A stretch of 64,000 nucleotides of DNA from an uncultured beta proteobacterium. Its GTDB lineage: Bacteria > Pseudomonadota > Gammaproteobacteria > Burkholderiales > SG8-41. The DNA lies in NCBI GenBank assembly GCA_903905655.1, contig CAIVHG010000035.1:722-64721 (forward strand), read 5' to 3'. The translations under genes were made by a program, and so were the position numbers. The notes under the pieces were generated by a model that saw only the letters and a program-made list of their open reading frames with translations, searched no databases and had not been told where the DNA came from. Positions 11,627 to 23,127 of this stretch are shown here, piece after piece. Position 1 is the stretch's first letter; each line of letters begins with the position of its first letter.

Positions 11627-13303
11627 TCAATAGCTTCGACCGTTGTGCGTTTCCCCGTGACAGTTCAGATAGCACTGCCGGGTCACCGTATTGACGTAGA
11701 GCTTCGCGGCGGCACCAGTGCCCACCGGCGTATTGTCGGTGGTGGAAAGATTGATCAGCCGGCTGTTGAAGGTTGCGTTGCCCTGCGTGCCGCTGATCCC
11801 GTGCGGATCATGGCAGGCCTTGCAGCCATAGCGCAGATGTTCAGACCGGTTGTGCGGCGACCCGCTGGTGACGGTCGATTGGCGGTGGCACTTGTAGCAG
11901 ATGTCGCCGGCAGTCGGCGTGCTGTTGGTCGCATACGGCCGTTCCAGCAGCCGCACATTTGTAGATCCGTGCGGGCCGTTGGGTCCCGTTCCGCCGGCGC
12001 CCGGCCCGGCATTGTTGTTGTGGCAGTCTTCGCACTTGACGATGCTCGATATCGTCCACGGTGCGAGCAGGCTCGGCACGTTCGCGCTCTTGCCGGGTCC
12101 TGCGACCGGATGATACGACGGATTGAGCGTGCTGAATTCGAGCCGCGTATTGCTCTGCGCGATCTGGCGTGCGATGAGCGGCGCGGGCTGGCCGGGGCTG
12201 TCGGCATGGCAGCGAAAGCAGATTTGATACTCTGCAGTGGCGGGATTGATCGCGGCACCATTGATATCGATGCCGCGCACTCCGATGAGCGAGCCCGGCA
12301 GCGTTCCCGCCGTGGCATTGCTGGCGTGCGGATTGTGACAGTCCACGCACTCGACGTGACGCGACTGCGCCACCGCGGATTCGATCGGGTCGTGCACGCC
12401 GGTGGTGGCCGCCACCGGATGGATTGAAGATTTAGCGAACTCGCTCTGGACATTTTTCGCCGCTACGTTGCCGTTGTGGCAAGGGTAGCAGTTGTTTTCC
12501 TCGACAGCGGTGTTGAGGTTCCATTTTTTGCCGCCGGCAGCGTGCGGCCGATGACAGCTCTCGCACGCGTTTGCCGAAACCGTGGTCCAGCTGGTGTGCG
12601 GCCAGGGATTGGTGCCGCTGCCGTTCCAGGTCTTGGTCGACAGCCGGTGGTCGCTCTGACTCCAGTAATTCTTCAGGTGGCAGGTCTGGCACAGCGCGGA
12701 CCCCTGATTCGACATCACCAGAAACTTTCCATTGCTATCGTCATGCGGATCGTGGCACGCTGTGCACTGCAGCTGACCTGCGGCATCGAGCTTCACGCGC
12801 CCCGTGAGCAGGGAAGGTGCCGCAAGCTCGCCGCGCGCGGCAGCGAGCGCCGCCGAGTAAGTGATCGACACCGGGTGATCGTCCGAAAGATCCGTGCCGA
12901 TGGCGCTGGCCGAGCCGGTGGGCATAGTCGTCACCCCGCCTGCCATCGCGATCGGCGTGGCGCGATTCAGCACATCGCCCAGCGCTATGGTGCCGTCGTG
13001 GCAGCTCAGGCACAACAGCGAAGCGCCATTGGGCTGACCGGCGTTGCCTTTGGCGGTGGAACTCGTGTACGGAATATAAGTCGCGCCTGGTGTGCGCCGG
13101 TTCCACAGCTGAGCGCTCGGTGCATTGTTATGCGGTGCATGGCAGAACACACAAATCTGCGGTTCCGACGCGCCTTTGACAGTCCCCGGTCCGCTCACCG
13201 ACAAATTATGTTTGCTCGTCGCCAGCAAACCAGCCGCAGCCGCCGGGAAAATCACGCACACTGCAACGACGATGGCGGCGAGCCACCGCAGCCAGCGACT
13301 CAA
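11627..13303 (-). CDS. Exported multiheme cytochrome c, 11 CxxCH plus 1 CxxxCH, with an N-terminal OmcE-like tetraheme module
   Basis: Signal peptide; motifs CVFCH, CLSCH, CTACH, CQTCH, CESCH, CYPCH, CVDCH, CFRCH, CEDCH, CYKCH, CKACH, CYLNCH. Confidence 0.93.
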   Translation of the reverse strand: MSRWLRWLAAIVVAVCVIFPAAAAGLLATSKHNLSVSGPGTVKGASEPQICVFCHAPHNNAPSAQLWNRRTPGATYIPYTSSTAKGNAGQPNGASLLCLSCHDGTIALGDVLNRATPIAMAGGVTTMPTGSASAIGTDLSDDHPVSITYSAALAAARGELAAPSLLTGRVKLDAAGQLQCTACHDPHDDSNGKFLVMSNQGSALCQTCHLKNYWSQSDHRLSTKTWNGSGTNPWPHTSWTTVSANACESCHRPHAAGGKKWNLNTAVEENNCYPCHNGNVAAKNVQSEFAKSSIHPVAATTGVHDPIESAVAQSRHVECVDCHNPHASNATAGTLPGSLIGVRGIDINGAAINPATAEYQICFRCHADSPGQPAPLIARQIAQSNTRLEFSTLNPSYHPVAGPGKSANVPSLLAPWTISSIVKCEDCHNNNAGPGAGGTGPNGPHGSTNVRLLERPYATNSTPTAGDICYKCHRQSTVTSGSPHNRSEHLRYGCKACHDPHGISGTQGNATFNSRLINLSTTDNTPVGTGAAAKLYVNTVTRQCYLNCHGETHNGRSY

Positions 13304-14322
13304 GCGTCGCCCCCGATATACCGAAACACCTGGACGCGGCTGTTGTATGAATCGGCAACGTAGATTAAATCGTCGTCGCCAATGTAGATGCCCGCCGGCA
13401 GCCAGAATTCTCCGCGCTCGCGGCCGAGCGCGCCGAATGCGAGAAGCAGCCTGCCTGCAGTGTCGAATATCTGCACCGCATTGAACAGCGCATCGACAAC
13501 GTAGATGTGTCCATAGCGATCGGTGGCCACGCCCTTCTGGCGCAAATGATCCCCGCTGCCGTCGCCCAATTGCCCAAACTTTCCCAGATAGCGACCGCCA
13601 TCGTCGAAGATCTGGACGCGAAAATTCATGGCATCAGTTACATAGAGCTTGCCCTGCGGCGTGCGCCAGATGAGCGTCGGATAGTTGAATTCACCGTCGC
13701 CCGCGCCGCGGCGCCCGAAACTGTACGCGAGTTTTCCATTGCGCTCGAACACCTTGACGTCGTGCGCAGTGGTGTCCACCACGTAAATCCGTCCGCTCCT
13801 TGCATCGACCGCGATCCCGGTCGGCTGCCTGAGCGGTGCGCTCAGTGCGACGCGGGAAATCACATGTTCGCGCGGCCGCATGACCGACACGGTGGCGAGC
13901 GCAGAATCCGTGACGTAGACCTCTCCCGCCGCTCCACGTGCGAGCCCCACGGCAGACGGCAGTGCGCCGCTCTCAGGACGCAGCAATTCGTAATCGCCAT
14001 TTGCGGTGTCAAAGCGATGCACGCCTTGTGCGCCCGGGTCTGCTACATAAAGCATTGGCCCGACCGCGAGCACTGCCATCGGCCGCACCAGCCGTGAGTC
14101 GCTGCCGCCGAACAGCGCGTCCGCGACGCGCTGCAGGAAACCCTTGGTGATACCGAGATCGTCGGGGCGCGCAATCGTCTCGACGTACGCGATCCGCGGC
14201 GCCGCCGGCGCCGCCGGCCACACCAGCGGCACCTTGTCCTCGGCTTTATGCACTGTTGGCGCGCATGCAGCCAGCGCCAGCAGCATCCAGATCACACAGG
14301 CCTTGTGTAGACGAATGCTCAT
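13300..14322 (-). CDS. NHL-repeat six-bladed beta-propeller lipoprotein
   Basis: Lipobox LAAC; repeats such as QPTGIAVD..IYVVD, GEFNYP and YVADSYNSRVQVF; ATGA overlap with the 12-heme gene. Confidence 0.9.
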   Translation of the reverse strand: MSIRLHKACVIWMLLALAACAPTVHKAEDKVPLVWPAAPAAPRIAYVETIARPDDLGITKGFLQRVADALFGGSDSRLVRPMAVLAVGPMLYVADPGAQGVHRFDTANGDYELLRPESGALPSAVGLARGAAGEVYVTDSALATVSVMRPREHVISRVALSAPLRQPTGIAVDARSGRIYVVDTTAHDVKVFERNGKLAYSFGRRGAGDGEFNYPTLIWRTPQGKLYVTDAMNFRVQIFDDGGRYLGKFGQLGDGSGDHLRQKGVATDRYGHIYVVDALFNAVQIFDTAGRLLLAFGALGRERGEFWLPAGIYIGDDDLIYVADSYNSRVQVFRYIGGDA

Positions 14323-21832: not shown

Positions 21833-23127
21833 CTCACTACCCGCTGTGGTCGCTATATGCAGTCCTGCTCACGTTGATACTGTGCCTCTATGTGCGGCGC
21901 CAGCGGCAGCGCGAAACGCGGTCGAGGTCGGCACTGCAACGGGCCGTGGAAGCAGGACTGACCGAACCGCCGAGCCTGCACCCGGTCGTCGATCCCAACC
22001 TCTGCATGGGCTCCGGCGCCTGCACCCGGGCGTGTCCTGAAGGAACGCTCGGGATCGTCAATGGCAAGGCTTACCTCATCAATCCCACGGTATGCATCGG
22101 ACACGCTGCATGCGCCGCAGCCTGCCCGGTCGAAGCGATCAAGCTCGTGTTCGGCAGCGCGCGCCGGGGCATCGATATTCCCTACGTGAAGCCGAGCTTC
22201 GAGACTAACGTTCCAGGAATTTATATCGCAGGAGAACTGGGCGGGATGGGGCTGATACGCAAGGCCGCCGAGCAAGGCCGGCAGGCGATGGAATCGATTT
22301 CGAAAAACCGCGCTCACCGCCAGGAACTCGATGTGGTCATCGTGGGCGCCGGTCCCGCCGGAATTTCCGCAACCCTGGCGGCGATGGAACGCGAGTTGCG
22401 CTTCGTCACCATCGAGCAGGAAGCCTCGCTCGGAGGCACGGTCTACCACTATCCGCGCAACAAGATCGTCATGACCCAGCCGATCACGCTGCCCATCGTC
22501 GGCAAAGCGAAGCTTGGCGAGATCTCCAAGGAGTCGCTGCTCGAATTCTGGCAGGGCATCGTGGACCGCACGCGCATGCCGATCCACTACGGCGAGCGCC
22601 TGGTGAAGGTCGGGACCGCCGACGGCGGCTTTGTGGTCAACACCGGCGGCAATGAGTACCGCTGCCGCTCGATCCTGCTCGCCATCGGGCGGCGCGGCAC
22701 GCCGCGCAAGCTCGATGTCCCCGGAGAAGAGCTGTCAAAGGTCGTCTATCGGATGGTCGATCCAGAACAGTATCAGGGCAAGCGGGTGCTGGTCGTGGGC
22801 GGCGGCGACAGCGCGATCGAAGCGGCCGTCGCCATCGCAGGCGAAGCCGGATCGCATGTGACGCTGTCGTACCGCGGCGCCGCCTTCAACCGCGTGAAGC
22901 AGCAAAATCGCGAGCGCATGGCTGCGGCACAACAGTCGGGGCGCCTGCAGCTCGCATACAACTCGACGGTCAAACGCATCGAGGAAAAACGTGCTCTGCT
23001 CGAGCACGATGGACGGTCACTGGCTTTGGACAACGATAGCGTCATCGTGTGCGCCGGCGGCGTGCTGCCGACGCCGATGCTGAAGGAAATGGGCATCATG
23101 GTGGAAACCAAATACGGCACTGCATGA
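21829..23127 (+). CDS. Membrane-anchored Fe-S dicluster plus thioredoxin-reductase-like FAD/NAD(P)H oxidoreductase
   Basis: N-terminal TM helix; CMGSGACTRACP and CIGHAACAAACP; GAGPAG FAD motif and GGGDSA NAD(P) motif; ATGA-coupled to the 24-heme gene. Confidence 0.88.
   Translation: MTHYPLWSLYAVLLTLILCLYVRRQRQRETRSRSALQRAVEAGLTEPPSLHPVVDPNLCMGSGACTRACPEGTLGIVNGKAYLINPTVCIGHAACAAACPVEAIKLVFGSARRGIDIPYVKPSFETNVPGIYIAGELGGMGLIRKAAEQGRQAMESISKNRAHRQELDVVIVGAGPAGISATLAAMERELRFVTIEQEASLGGTVYHYPRNKIVMTQPITLPIVGKAKLGEISKESLLEFWQGIVDRTRMPIHYGERLVKVGTADGGFVVNTGGNEYRCRSILLAIGRRGTPRKLDVPGEELSKVVYRMVDPEQYQGKRVLVVGGGDSAIEAAVAIAGEAGSHVTLSYRGAAFNRVKQQNRERMAAAQQSGRLQLAYNSTVKRIEEKRALLEHDGRSLALDNDSVIVCAGGVLPTPMLKEMGIMVETKYGTA

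Follow-up and report, generated by a model that had tools for sequence, protein, structure and literature searches.

The window, i.e., the whole stretch of 64,000 nucleotides that was analyzed, belongs to a betaproteobacterium from lake water whose genome assembly is 69.7% complete. Sequence, motif, and Pfam/NCBIfam searches revealed two divergent operons with eight genes at 11627-23127, and the Pfam and NCBIfam assignments were consistent with the eight gene identities. All the left- and right-arm genes listed by an earlier sequence-only reading were recovered. The c-type cytochromes encoded carry 4, 12, and 24 hemes, and the heme motifs across the locus totaled 40, in agreement with the earlier estimate of about 40 c-hemes. 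The features are as follows.

11627-13303, minus strand: 12-heme c-type cytochrome (11 CXXCH and one CX3CH; Pfam Paired_CXXCH_1)
13300-14325, minus strand: second NHL-repeat beta-propeller lipoprotein (lipobox LAAC; Pfam NHL, 2.3e-26)
14325-16343, minus strand: large outer-membrane beta-barrel (signal peptide, C-terminal Phe, about 28 strands by AF2)
16474-17619, minus strand: NHL-repeat beta-propeller lipoprotein (lipobox VAAC; Pfam NHL, 2.7e-19)
17825-18478, minus strand: OmcE-like tetraheme cytochrome (4 CXXCH, signal peptide), candidate filament subunit
18479-19152, no strand: divergent intergenic region, 674 bp, G+C below the surroundings
19153-20043, plus strand: inner membrane protein of PCC3 type (5 predicted TM helices, two WX3HX13H, SGXXG)
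20018-21832, plus strand: 24-heme periplasmic cytochrome (24 CXXCH; Pfam Cytochrome_C7, 7 stretches)
21829-23127, plus strand: membrane-anchored Fe-S/FAD/NAD(P)H flavoprotein (Pyr_redox_3, 4.9e-43; Fer4_10, 7.8e-10)

The left arm is, judging from its sequence, an OmcE-type nanowire/Uet-like module. The tetraheme cytochrome matched the OmcE filament subunit 7tfs (E 1.4e-21) and 9yuq (E 5.4e-19). Residues 12-211 of the 12-heme protein matched the same two entries (E 6e-30 and 1.2e-22, respectively), and its mature N-terminal domain, roughly 180 aa long, constituted a complete OmcE-like tetraheme module, after which eight hemes follow. In an alignment of 61 rows (32 tetrahemes and 29 N-terminal domains of 12-heme proteins), the N-terminal His, the four CxxCH, and three further His were invariant, that is, all eight heme-ligating His. 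Moreover, the left-arm gene set matched the minimal OmcE cluster (Geobacter sulfurreducens 7TFS; Desulfuromonas soudanensis 9YUQ; mBio 2026) as given in the sections of PMC13712944 consulted: both combine a large beta-barrel, a pair of beta-propeller lipoproteins, and multiheme cytochromes with an OmcE-type tetraheme, and the homolog at this locus has all four CxxCH plus four more His. The Uet (undecaheme electron transfer) cluster, known from 'Ca. Tenderia electrophaga' and from Gallionella, was likened to it by the component list in the consulted parts of bioRxiv 10.1101/2022.05.06.490989 and PMC10734462: the extracellular tetraheme UetA, the barrel UetC with 28 predicted strands, the NHL proteins UetH and UetI, and the 11-12-heme doubled-CXXCH cytochrome UetJ. 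The proposed resemblance of the left arm to OmcE and Uet loci was thus borne out.

The left arm also departs from both relatives. Compared with the OmcE cluster, its host is a lake-water betaproteobacterium, glycosylation genes do not adjoin the locus, the PCC3 inner module stands in for a second, smaller multiheme cytochrome, and the filament is predicted here from the genes. Its 12-heme partner begins with a full OmcE module, whereas the operons studied in the consulted sections of PMC13712944 encode no OmcE-like anchor or tip candidate. [quoted passage not shown]

The AF2 model of the barrel consisted almost entirely of beta structure, in which about 28 long strands were counted (pLDDT 77), and had a low-confidence beta insert at residues 385-467. 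The barrel matched no Pfam family, and a Pfam domain was found in none of the 120 listed of its 276 homologs. The best PDB match of the model was MtrB (6r2q_B; E 1.5e-8, TMq 0.43, rmsd 14.3), and the ushers PapC and FimD were also among the structural matches. As in MtrCAB of Shewanella (6R2Q), a barrel sheathing a multiheme wire would be combined with a surface cytochrome. However, the barrel sequence showed no homology to MtrB, about 28 strands were counted on the model versus 26 given for MtrB in the consulted part of bioRxiv 10.1101/2022.05.06.490989, and the locus has lipoprotein partners, OmcE-like parts, and a much longer periplasmic wire.

The right arm is, as judged by homology, the inner module of PCC3 porin-cytochrome clusters. 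The membrane protein carries the His pairs H98/H112 and H275/H289 as well as a helical loop some 110 aa long; its motifs were invariant in an alignment of 24 rows, and its AF2 model had a pLDDT of 82. Its relatives with 38-49% identity are located in PCC3-type loci. The 24-heme gene overlaps the preceding membrane protein gene by 26 nt and encodes eight tandem triheme units of about 67 aa apiece; its product is 41-55% identical to cytochromes with 21-27 hemes from PCC3-type loci. PCC3 likewise has an inner membrane protein that is about 300 aa long and crosses the membrane with 5 TM helices, and a 21-27-heme periplasmic cytochrome (Hoover et al. 2023, PMC10734462), and the two WX3HX13H and the SGXXG that He et al. 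2017 (PMC5566968) describe, in the parts consulted, for the PCC3/PCC4 membrane protein are present here. These results support the earlier suggestion that the right arm resembles the inner part of PCC3. Compared with PCC3, the locus lacks the outer half and a giant second cytochrome, and its flavoprotein gene lies downstream in the same operon rather than divergently. The locus barrel had a match in 0 of the 24 PCC3-type loci. PCC3 is defined as four genes, with the flavoprotein unmentioned, in the consulted parts of PMC5566968, PMC10734462, and bioRxiv 10.1101/2025.02.27.639646.

The membrane protein is a candidate di-heme b transmembrane electron carrier. Homology to ferric-reductase-domain proteins was not detected with Pfam, the hhalign comparison with a 4-row MsrQ-like alignment gave a probability of 0.3%, and the fold searches returned helical-bundle noise (Z <=11); since no such homology was detected, the predicted heme b binding is based on the motifs. 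NADPH oxidase, ferric reductase, and MsrQ (PF01794) nevertheless follow the same logic of transmembrane electron export: a cytoplasmic flavoprotein uses NAD(P)H, two helices carry His pairs with a 13-residue spacing that bind two b-hemes, and the acceptor lies outside. A resemblance of the motifs to this type was already noted by He et al. 2017 in the consulted part of PMC5566968. Unlike in NADPH oxidase, the dehydrogenase at the locus is a separate polypeptide and has a thioredoxin-reductase fold and an Fe-S domain, not a ferredoxin-NADP-reductase fold.

From its N terminus, the flavoprotein has a TM helix and then a run rich in Arg, followed by a ferredoxin-like domain and a FAD/NAD(P)H domain with the thioredoxin-reductase fold. 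Its most likely start codon, an ATG at 21829, overlaps with the 24-heme stop codon. The start of a longer ORF at 21571 is probably unused; the 21829-type start was seen in 20 other loci. The ferredoxin motifs are two Cx5Cx3CP with three Cys apiece, versus the canonical four. The closest matches were YpdA/Bdr (7a7b, 4.8e-36) and TrxR-type ferredoxin-NADP reductases, and the FAD/NAD(P)H domain has no CxxC disulfide. Since the TM helix is followed by RRQRQR, the bulk of the protein is predicted to be cytoplasmic.

Several lines of evidence speak in favor of the flavoprotein belonging with the membrane protein. A flavoprotein homolog with 54-64% identity adjoins the membrane protein gene, divergently, in 23 of the 24 PCC3-type loci. 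In the hybrid loci, which have both arms, the flavoprotein gene is co-directional with a stop/start overlap, and it stood beside the membrane protein gene in every hybrid locus not cut short. Furthermore, one public protein of 790 aa (P0122, a single record from one assembly) fuses the membrane protein, a TM helix, the ferredoxin, and the FAD domain, in an order that agrees with the cytoplasmic topology. Complex prediction weakly supports the pairing: the ipSAE was 0.41 versus 0.00 for the best of 3 controls. Of 80 solved complexes, 58 pass this mark, as do 2 of 110 mismatched pairs, and passes at <=0.60 comprise just 7 of the 80 solved complexes plus both mismatched pairs that passed. The partners had a pLDDT of at least 74, and the runs shared at least 75% of contacts.

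The intergenic region at 18479-19152 is presumed to be a control region common to both arms. One sigma-70-like site was found at 18602-18629, although shuffled sequences gave more sites, and a sigma-54 consensus was not found in the region. No RNA run contained the locus. A contig of run X1 covers 17467-19463 with 1 mismatch, and other species genomes show the same divergent junction. Therefore, the junction of the arms is not an assembly artefact.

The distribution of the arms was followed in 45 loci found via the barrel in other species genomes, one genome per species. All eight genes occurred together in 17 of the 45, which confirms the co-location that the sequence-only reading had wanted checked. 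The arms were divergent as in the window in 16 of these, and in the remaining one (L035) the right arm lay downstream and on the same strand. Seven further loci, interrupted by contig ends, contained parts of both arms. The second NHL lipoprotein gene, whose start overlaps the stop of the barrel gene, was syntenic in 35/35 clustered loci, and the flanking genes showed no conservation. Extra OmcE-like tetraheme paralogs were seen at L005 and L024.

The alternative partner of the left arm was mutually exclusive with the right arm. Where enough flanking sequence was available, 0/16 loci with the right arm had a 5-9-heme cytochrome following the 12-heme gene, and 11/11 loci without that arm had a 7- or 9-heme cytochrome in this place. 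After clustering, a 7-/9-heme-type cytochrome was present in 13 of 14 one-arm loci versus 0 of 21 two-arm loci. In a quick flavoprotein tree the hybrid loci formed one clade (21 rows on one side of the branch, SH-aLRT 98), so this complementary pattern may reflect a single evolutionary event.

Given the observed gene content, homologies, conserved linkage, and mutual exclusion with the alternative partner, we consider it reasonably probable that the eight genes are one conserved unit encoding an electron conduit across the entire cell envelope. We infer its heme b binding, contacts between parts, filament formation, direction, and function as follows. In the inner module, the anchored flavoprotein facing the cytoplasm would draw electrons from NAD(P)H through FAD to two Fe-S clusters and pass them to the five-helix membrane protein, with two b-hemes between its two His-X13-His pairs. 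The electrons would then enter the 24-heme cytochrome, whose eight triheme units would be long enough to bridge the periplasm. In the outer module, the barrel of about 28 strands and the two NHL lipoproteins would carry or secrete the 12-heme cytochrome, which could dock onto an OmcE-like tetraheme polymer outside the cell since its N-terminal domain is itself an OmcE module. The earlier interpretation, in which one locus supplies every step, is supported in the resemblance of both modules, whereas nanowire formation and electron flow stay predictions.

The OmcE-like tetraheme might remain monomeric, as a non-polymerising surface cytochrome in the sense of UetA, with the 12-heme protein acting, like MtrC, as the terminal reductase or oxidase at the cell surface. 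UetA and UetJ are treated as extracellular in the consulted part of bioRxiv 10.1101/2022.05.06.490989, with polymerisation raised just as a possibility. In addition, OmcE-similar tetrahemes are widespread, so the authors of PMC13712944, in the sections consulted, filtered by gene context; however, that context, a large barrel and a beta-propeller lipoprotein, is present at this locus. The invariance of the N-terminal His and all other OmcE heme ligands, together with the paralogs at L005 and L024, also argues for a polymer, and we regard the monomer as somewhat unlikely.

The same architecture could serve uptake: Fe(II), minerals, a cathode, or a partner cell would donate electrons, which would travel by way of the filament, the barrel, and the 24-heme cytochrome to the membrane protein and on to the quinone pool. 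The quinone handover would be the one put forward for PCC3 by He et al. 2017, and the flavoprotein would be an accessory, e.g., in redox sensing or repair. According to the consulted parts of the sources, PCC3 and Uet were described from iron and cathode oxidisers (PMC5566968, PMC10734462, bioRxiv 10.1101/2022.05.06.490989), PCC3 comes mostly from iron oxidisers and is interpreted as carrying electrons inward to the quinone pool, opposite to the direction favored here (PMC5566968, PMC10734462), the membrane component of one PCC3 copy in Sideroxydans CL21 was up during iron oxidation (bioRxiv 10.1101/2025.02.27.639646), and multiheme wires are in principle reversible, as stated for Mto/Mtr (PMC10734462). 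However, an accessory role poorly explains the adjacency of the flavoprotein and the P0122 fusion, and inward flow to NAD(P)+ would oppose the redox gap and the membrane potential on general bioenergetic grounds. Moreover, RuBisCO was not found in the 69.7%-complete genome, and a quinone site is not readable from sequence. Uptake is judged unlikely. Outward flow from NAD(P)H to an extracellular acceptor, e.g., Fe(III), Mn(IV), humics, or a partner cell, is slightly favored since the cytoplasmic NAD(P)H flavoprotein is tied to the membrane protein. Direction had been called unreadable from sequence; it is still a matter of interpretation, but the flavoprotein and the membrane protein lean to export.

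It is very unlikely that the left arm is nothing more than a secretion and assembly machine for a surface cytochrome polymer, in which the barrel would be a pore of the usher kind and the NHL proteins would serve as its chaperones, and that the right arm is a separate periplasmic redox system co-inherited by chance. The usher matches and the 'secretion pore or anchor' discussed in the consulted sections of PMC13712944 fit this reading. So do left-arm cores without the right arm, which occurred in 11 assessable loci and, when 400 genomes of the class were sampled, in 5 of 6 loci examined, the remaining one having barrel and NHL genes only. However, where the right arm is missing, its place is taken by a cytochrome with 7 or 9 hemes or by two with 8 hemes, so that the left arm is always accompanied by a candidate periplasmic feeder. 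The giant second cytochrome that usually partners the right arm in PCC3-type loci is missing from hybrid loci, which leaves the right arm there without another outlet. L035, rearranged yet still adjacent, argues for selection on linkage.

In the assembled genome, the 4-, 12-, and 24-heme genes are 3 of just 5 ORFs with at least 3 CXXCH, and two heme-copper oxidases were found. The heme maturation genes are absent from the window, and the ccm/ccs genes expected elsewhere were not found in the 69.7%-complete genome (ResB, 0 matches; CcmE, 0 matches; a sole Cytochrom_C_asm match of 60 bits, below the CcsB cut-off of 187.6). Therefore, calling the conduit 'self-contained' was too strong. Our literature search found no paper describing an inner PCC3-type with an outer nanowire-type part, and no described cluster matching the locus gene for gene, in line with the earlier view that the combination is not a known characterised system. 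We read the unit as a new combination of two predicted modules, each known separately from genome surveys, and the conduit may pass electrons between the cell interior and outside minerals.

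The sequence-only reading had described two gene sets diverging from one intergenic region, and this layout was borne out by the ORF listing and translation. The left arm (11627-18478, minus strand), the right arm (19153-23127, plus strand) and the region between them comprise the following features, with the evidence for each in brackets.

11627-13303, minus strand: 12-heme cytochrome, 558 aa, with 11 CXXCH and one CX3CH (motifs)
13300-14325, minus strand: second NHL lipoprotein, lipobox LAAC (NHL repeats)
14325-16343, minus strand: barrel, 672 aa, without a Pfam family (ORF, AF2 model)
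16474-17619, minus strand: first NHL lipoprotein, lipobox VAAC (NHL repeats)
17825-18478, minus strand: tetraheme cytochrome, 217 aa (ORF listing and translation)
18479-19152: divergent intergenic region, 674 bp (G+C below that of its surroundings)
19153-20043, plus strand: membrane protein, 296 aa (ORF listing and translation)
20018-21832, plus strand: 24-heme cytochrome, 604 aa, with 24 CXXCH (motifs)
21829-23127, plus strand: flavoprotein, from its likely start, ATG 21829 (Pfam/NCBIfam 4Fe-4S and Pyr_redox_3)

Pfam and NCBIfam assigned the NHL repeats, the multiheme families and the 4Fe-4S and Pyr_redox_3 domains of the flavoprotein, and gave no family for the membrane protein or the 672-aa barrel. 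In the left arm, the gene ends of the barrel and the NHL lipoprotein overlap, as do those of the NHL lipoprotein and the 12-heme cytochrome. In the right arm, the membrane protein gene overlaps the 24-heme gene by 26 nt, and the latter overlaps the flavoprotein gene by 4 nt if ATG 21829 is used, a start that yields an N-terminal transmembrane helix and recurs in 20 other loci. No sigma-54 promoter was found in the intergenic region (4 matches in the whole window against 6.6 expected), and a promoter and terminator scan of the window gave a count not above that of shuffled sequences. A histidine kinase and a sigma-54-dependent response regulator stand beside the gene unit in nine other loci (L009, 1458-4301; L012, L016, L017, L018, L020, L021, L034 and L042), directly after the flavoprotein gene in seven of them; no close relative of this pair adjoins the window's locus. 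The 205-nt gap 3' of the tetraheme gene (17620-17824, minus strand) holds a long imperfect hairpin directly past the stop codon, and its fold z-score of -1.65 was not significant. Directly downstream of the 12-heme gene, a 210-aa protein (10845-11477, minus strand) matched the NCBIfam heme-binding domain NF040572 below cut-off (E 1.6e-11), and other genomes did not keep it next to the locus.

The stretch, or part of it, was held by 17 public sequencing runs from 8 studies, all labelled lake water or freshwater metagenomes; six of them held half or more of its sampled words, and no RNA run was listed among the 17. Contigs of run X1, which may be the sample from which the window was assembled, covered the arm junction, and contigs of runs X3 and X7 covered parts of both arms at 99-100% identity. 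One 1238-bp contig of run X9, from a related strain (about 95-97% identical), joins position 15053 to 15667 and position 16098 to 19378, so that the first NHL gene, the tetraheme gene, the intergenic region and part of the barrel gene are missing from it. This may reflect a deletion variant or, alternatively, an artefact of assembly.

The sequence-only reading had staked its proposal on the co-location of the two arms in other genomes. The barrel family has 276 homologs, with no Pfam domain in the 120 matches listed. A barrel alignment was searched against one genome per species (185,579 species), and the resulting 45 loci were scored by tblastn with the eight window proteins. All eight genes were present in 17 of the 45 loci, so that co-location holds beyond the window; 16 of these loci are divergent like the window, and in one (L035) the right arm lies downstream on the same strand. 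Parts of both arms were seen in 7 more loci that end at contig ends, 13 loci showed the five left-arm genes without the right arm (one of them, L032, with only about 2 kb visible upstream), and the remaining 8 were too short or too cut to judge. The carriers are labelled beta proteobacterium, Rhodocyclales, Rhodocyclaceae, Sulfuritalea, Sterolibacterium, Azonexus and Thiobacillaceae, and include the isolate Aromatoleum toluvorans Td21 (L029). No flanking gene was kept across these loci, beyond Bug-family paralogs in two, and since the flanks are not conserved, the eight genes are taken as the unit.

The two kinds of locus differ in a complementary manner. A 7- or 9-heme cytochrome immediately follows the 12-heme gene in all 11 loci without the right arm for which at least 3 kb was seen upstream of the tetraheme gene, and a 5-9-heme cytochrome past the 12-heme gene occurs in none of the 16 right-arm loci with at least 900 bp seen there. 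By ORF clustering, 13 of 14 one-arm loci had that cytochrome and none had the membrane protein, whereas all 21 two-arm loci had the membrane protein and none had that cytochrome. Chance adjacency of the arms was rejected, given the conserved linkage, the rearrangement in L035 and this complementary pattern. Among 400 genomes sampled across the class, strong barrel matches occurred in six besides the window's genome. Five of the six carry the same five-gene core in the same order, the sixth has only the barrel and NHL genes, and the right arm was found in none. Four of the five cores are followed by two 8-heme cytochromes, and the fifth has one 8-heme cytochrome nearby. Judged by gene content, the left-arm core appears always to travel with some candidate periplasmic feeder, the right arm being one alternative.

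Within the window's own family, the membrane protein was found in 8 of 120 other genomes; the full two-arm locus occurred in 2 of 21 same-genus genomes and in one genome of another genus, and four others had a PCC3-type arrangement (PCC3 being a porin-cytochrome cluster). The two-arm locus is accessory and patchy. A record titled as a Chitinophaga pinensis MAG (L002/L133) is placed by the genome collection in the window genome's own genus, and its submitter label is accordingly probably wrong; the labels of L005 (titled Enterobacteriaceae) and L035 (titled Rokuibacteriota) may reflect binning errors or transfers. In four one-arm loci labelled Rhodoferax or Burkholderiales (L023, L025, L026 and L027), the region upstream of the tetraheme gene encodes additional cytochromes of 5-6 and of 10 hemes on the same strand; three of these loci (L023, L025 and L027) also have a divergent 7-heme cytochrome there.

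The left arm had been likened to Geobacter OmcE loci and to the undecaheme electron transfer (Uet) cluster, and both likenesses held, the former by structure matches and by the barrel and lipoprotein context, the latter by composition. Over its whole mature length, the tetraheme matched the OmcE structures 7tfs (Geobacter; E 1.4e-21) and 9yuq (Desulfuromonas soudanensis, bundled; E 5.4e-19), and the first 200 residues of the 12-heme protein matched the same structures with better scores (E 6e-30 and E 1.2e-22, respectively). An alignment was built from the window and related loci, with 32 tetrahemes and the N-terminal domains of 29 12-heme proteins. Invariant in all 61 rows were a His about 8 residues into the mature chain, four CxxCH and three further His, and the accessible text of PMC13712944 gives the same ligands as conserved in OmcE homologs. 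The barrel's AF2 model (14-row alignment, pLDDT 77) is nearly all beta, with 28 long strands by manual count and a poorly modelled, low-confidence beta insert at residues 385-467. Its best solved match was MtrB of the Shewanella Mtr complex (6r2q_B, E 1.5e-8, TMq 0.43, rmsd 14.3), followed by TonB-dependent receptors, pilus ushers and LptD. Barrel residues 425-511 weakly matched the NCBIfam phage tail tube NF052337 (E 5.6e-8, 32.5 bits, cut-off 60).

As far as the accessible part of that mBio 2026 paper goes (PMC13712944), a large barrel and a beta-propeller lipoprotein nearby serve as its filter for nanowire-competent OmcE homologs, and the left arm has the OmcE homolog, the nearby large barrel and the nearby beta-propeller lipoproteins. 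It is also similar to the 'smallest cluster' described there, in which OmcE and a barrel are accompanied by two multiheme cytochromes and two beta-propeller lipoproteins. Compared with the Uet cluster of 'Ca. Tenderia', in so far as the accessible description covers it, UetA (tetraheme), UetC (barrel, 28 strands predicted), UetH/UetI (NHL) and UetJ (undecaheme) have left-arm counterparts, a likeness by composition only; however, no ORFs corresponding to the UetB isomerase, the UetD/E/G triheme cytochromes or the UetF cupredoxin lie in 11627-23127, and the gene order uetA-J is not shared. Two hybrid loci (L005:11985-13371 and L024:8696-10207) carry two extra tetraheme genes after the 12-heme gene, and one of those in L024 matches the window's tetraheme. 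These extra tetrahemes may be minor filament subunits.

The proposed likeness of the right arm to the inner part of PCC3 was upheld by its motifs, by the 24-heme neighbour and by homologs in 24 of 24 PCC3-type loci. The PCC3 inner membrane protein, as characterised in the accessible text of He et al. 2017 (PMC5566968), has about 300 aa, 5 transmembrane helices, two WX3HX13H motifs and SGXXG, and the window's protein has all of these features; H98, H112, H275, H289, W94, W271, S135, G136 and G139 were invariant in a 24-row alignment. The PCC3 periplasmic 21-27-heme cytochrome beside the membrane protein corresponds to the window's 24 CXXCH protein. That protein consists of eight tandem triheme units of about 67 residues each (25 residues per heme), and its complete homologs in other loci have 15, 18, 21, 24 or 27 hemes, always multiples of three; against PDB sequences its best E value was 0.5. 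In contrast, the PCC3 porin and large extracellular cytochrome (median 34 hemes in the accessible text of He et al. 2017, PMC5566968) have no counterpart in the window.

When 400 genomes across the order were scanned with the membrane protein profile, 36 other genomes matched, 23 of them strongly, and about 20 kb around each of the 24 strong matches (E 1e-73 or better) was examined. All 24 showed the PCC3 order of membrane protein, 21-27-heme cytochrome and a second cytochrome with between 7 and 63 motifs (some cut by contig ends), PCC3-type being assigned here by the order of these three genes. A flavoprotein homolog (54-64% identity) adjoins the membrane protein divergently in 23 of the 24, and none of them has left-arm genes (barrel, 12-heme and 4-heme proteins gave no tblastn match at 1e-5). 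In the accessible parts of the sources, PCC3 is defined as four genes that include no flavoprotein (PMC5566968, PMC10734462, bioRxiv 10.1101/2025.02.27.639646). Our literature search returned no paper that ties PCC3 to 4Fe-4S, FAD and multiheme proteins together; Tables S3, S4 and S6 of He et al. 2017 and Table S4 of Hoover et al. 2023 may list the flavoprotein, the Leptothrix cholodnii porin cluster or hybrid loci. For other clusters of a cytochrome and a membrane protein, the accessible text of He et al. (PMC5566968) mentions 'another redox protein', a porin being present in just two genomes, one of them that of Leptothrix cholodnii SP-6, and the accessible text of the Uet preprint (bioRxiv 10.1101/2022.05.06.490989) treats L. 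cholodnii as an outlier. L. cholodnii may hold a related arrangement.

When 42 flavoproteins were placed in a quick maximum-likelihood tree, one branch (SH-aLRT 98) separated the 21 of hybrid loci from the 21 of PCC3-type loci. One module swap with later spread is therefore enough to account for the hybrids, and since one swap suffices, the complementary 7/9-heme pattern does not represent many independent events.

The flavoprotein has a transmembrane helix followed by RRQRQR, a ferredoxin-like domain and a thioredoxin-reductase-fold FAD/NAD(P)H domain. Both ferredoxin motifs (residues 59-99) are Cx5Cx3CP, with three Cys rather than four, and an invariant His92 occupies the middle-Cys position of the second; we take three-Cys motifs of this spacing to be typical of [3Fe-4S] clusters. 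The FAD/NAD(P)H part matched Pyr_redox_3 (4.9e-43) with invariant GAGPAG and GGGDSA, and its nearest solved relatives were YpdA/Bdr (7a7b, E 4.8e-36) and TrxR-type ferredoxin-NADP reductases. The redox-active CxxC of true thioredoxin reductases was looked for, and no invariant Cys pair was present in this part in a 21-row alignment.

The adjacency of flavoprotein and membrane protein is kept in two different arrangements, those of the hybrid and of the PCC3-type loci, and the reading frames overlap in the hybrid operon. Furthermore, in a single public protein of 790 aa (P0122), the membrane protein has its counterpart in residues 51-296 (31% identity, E 2e-24) and the flavoprotein in residues 393-783 (40% identity, E 3e-98); a transmembrane helix separates the two parts, and the order fits a membrane protein with its C-terminus outside and a flavoprotein with its bulk inside. 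The first ferredoxin motif of P0122 is the canonical CxxCxxCxxxCP. Complex prediction for the window pair gave an ipSAE of 0.41 versus 0.00 for the best control, with partner pLDDT of at least 74 and runs agreeing in at least 75% of contacts. Of 80 solved complexes, 58 reached the mark applied, as did 2 of 110 mismatched pairs; at an ipSAE of 0.60 or below, only 7 of those 80 did so, together with both passing mismatches. The prediction thus lends weak support to a contact. On these four lines of support, the flavoprotein appears to be a conserved partner of PCC3-type inner modules.

Membership of the membrane protein in the ferric reductase domain family (PF01794; NOX, FRE, MsrQ) was considered and rejected, as no Pfam match was obtained at E 0.01 and hhalign against a 4-row MsrQ-like alignment gave a probability of 0.3%. 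Its profile reached at best E 0.99 against PDB sequences, and Foldseek returned no fold match at E 0.001. A wide VIA-align search gave helical-bundle matches only (Z <= 11), among them the di-heme b proteins Dcytb, cytochrome b561 and CybB at Z 8.1. At the level of sequence, it is not a detectable member of that family, and any likeness to 'bacterial NOX' would be at most functional. The nearest ESM Atlas clusters bear automatic names such as 'Ferric reductase like' and no Pfam family, which is a lead only.

The direction of electron flow can be argued both ways. Export is favoured by the wiring of a cytoplasmic NAD(P)H enzyme through a transmembrane di-heme protein, and electrons moving inward to NAD(P)+ would have to overcome the redox gap from the usual Fe(II) donors as well as the membrane potential. 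The occurrence of PCC3 and Uet in iron and cathode oxidisers speaks against export. Most carriers bear labels of denitrifying heterotroph lineages, and the window's assembled genome (69.7% complete) holds two heme-copper oxidases, only two other multiheme ORFs, and neither RuBisCO nor NarG. On balance, we lean towards export. One of these two other multiheme ORFs, 675 aa long with 9 CXXCH and situated on contig C74 of the window's genome (L116:2600-4627, minus strand), lies beside a histidine kinase and a sigma-54 response regulator, and its residues 406-482 weakly matched formate dehydrogenase gamma, the b-type cytochrome subunit (E 3.9e-7, below cut-off). A multiheme c domain fused to cytochrome b is the layout of Geobacter CbcL, and this ORF might let electrons from quinol enter the same periplasmic wire. 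The ccm/ccs heme-maturation genes that had been expected elsewhere in the genome were not found (ResB 0, CcmE 0; one Cytochrom_C_asm match of 60 bits against the CcsB cut-off of 187.6); since the genome is only 69.7% complete, this is not proof of their absence.

The sequence-only reading stands, and the locus combines in a new way two kinds of system that are known but still uncharacterised. Nanowires and porin-cytochrome conduits play a central part in microbial electron exchange with minerals, electrodes and other cells, and the unit bears on how filaments are wired to the cell interior: within a single compact, conserved set of genes, it would plausibly offer every step between an NAD(P)H enzyme in the cytoplasm and an OmcE-type filament. 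On a bolder reading, the PCC3-type inner module, both here and in canonical PCC3, would be a three-protein analogue of NADPH oxidase: electrons from NAD(P)H in the cytoplasm would enter at a membrane-anchored ferredoxin-flavoprotein, cross the membrane on a di-heme b protein that forms its own family, and arrive at a periplasm-spanning triheme array. In this lineage, the inner module would have been re-plugged into the OmcE nanowire machine, and the 12-heme protein with its N-terminal OmcE module would be the long-sought adaptor from the trans-outer-membrane wire to the filament base. Taken jointly, these three proposals are speculative and rather unlikely all to hold; if the first is true, PCC3-type conduits would send reducing power outwards instead of serving iron oxidation.

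For specialists, the new points are the conservation of the flavoprotein as a partner of PCC3-type inner modules and the full OmcE module that starts the 12-heme protein. The latter makes this N-terminal domain a candidate filament anchor or tip, a part missing from the operons studied in the 2026 structural paper, as far as its accessible text goes (PMC13712944). Since the cultured isolate Aromatoleum toluvorans Td21 holds all eight genes, these ideas are testable at the bench. Inner and outer conduit modules appear to be swapped, the periplasmic feeder being a 7- or 9-heme cytochrome, two 8-heme cytochromes or the 24-heme PCC3 module, and the flavoprotein, as a probable fifth PCC3 component, would bear on whether PCC3 is really an iron-oxidation system.
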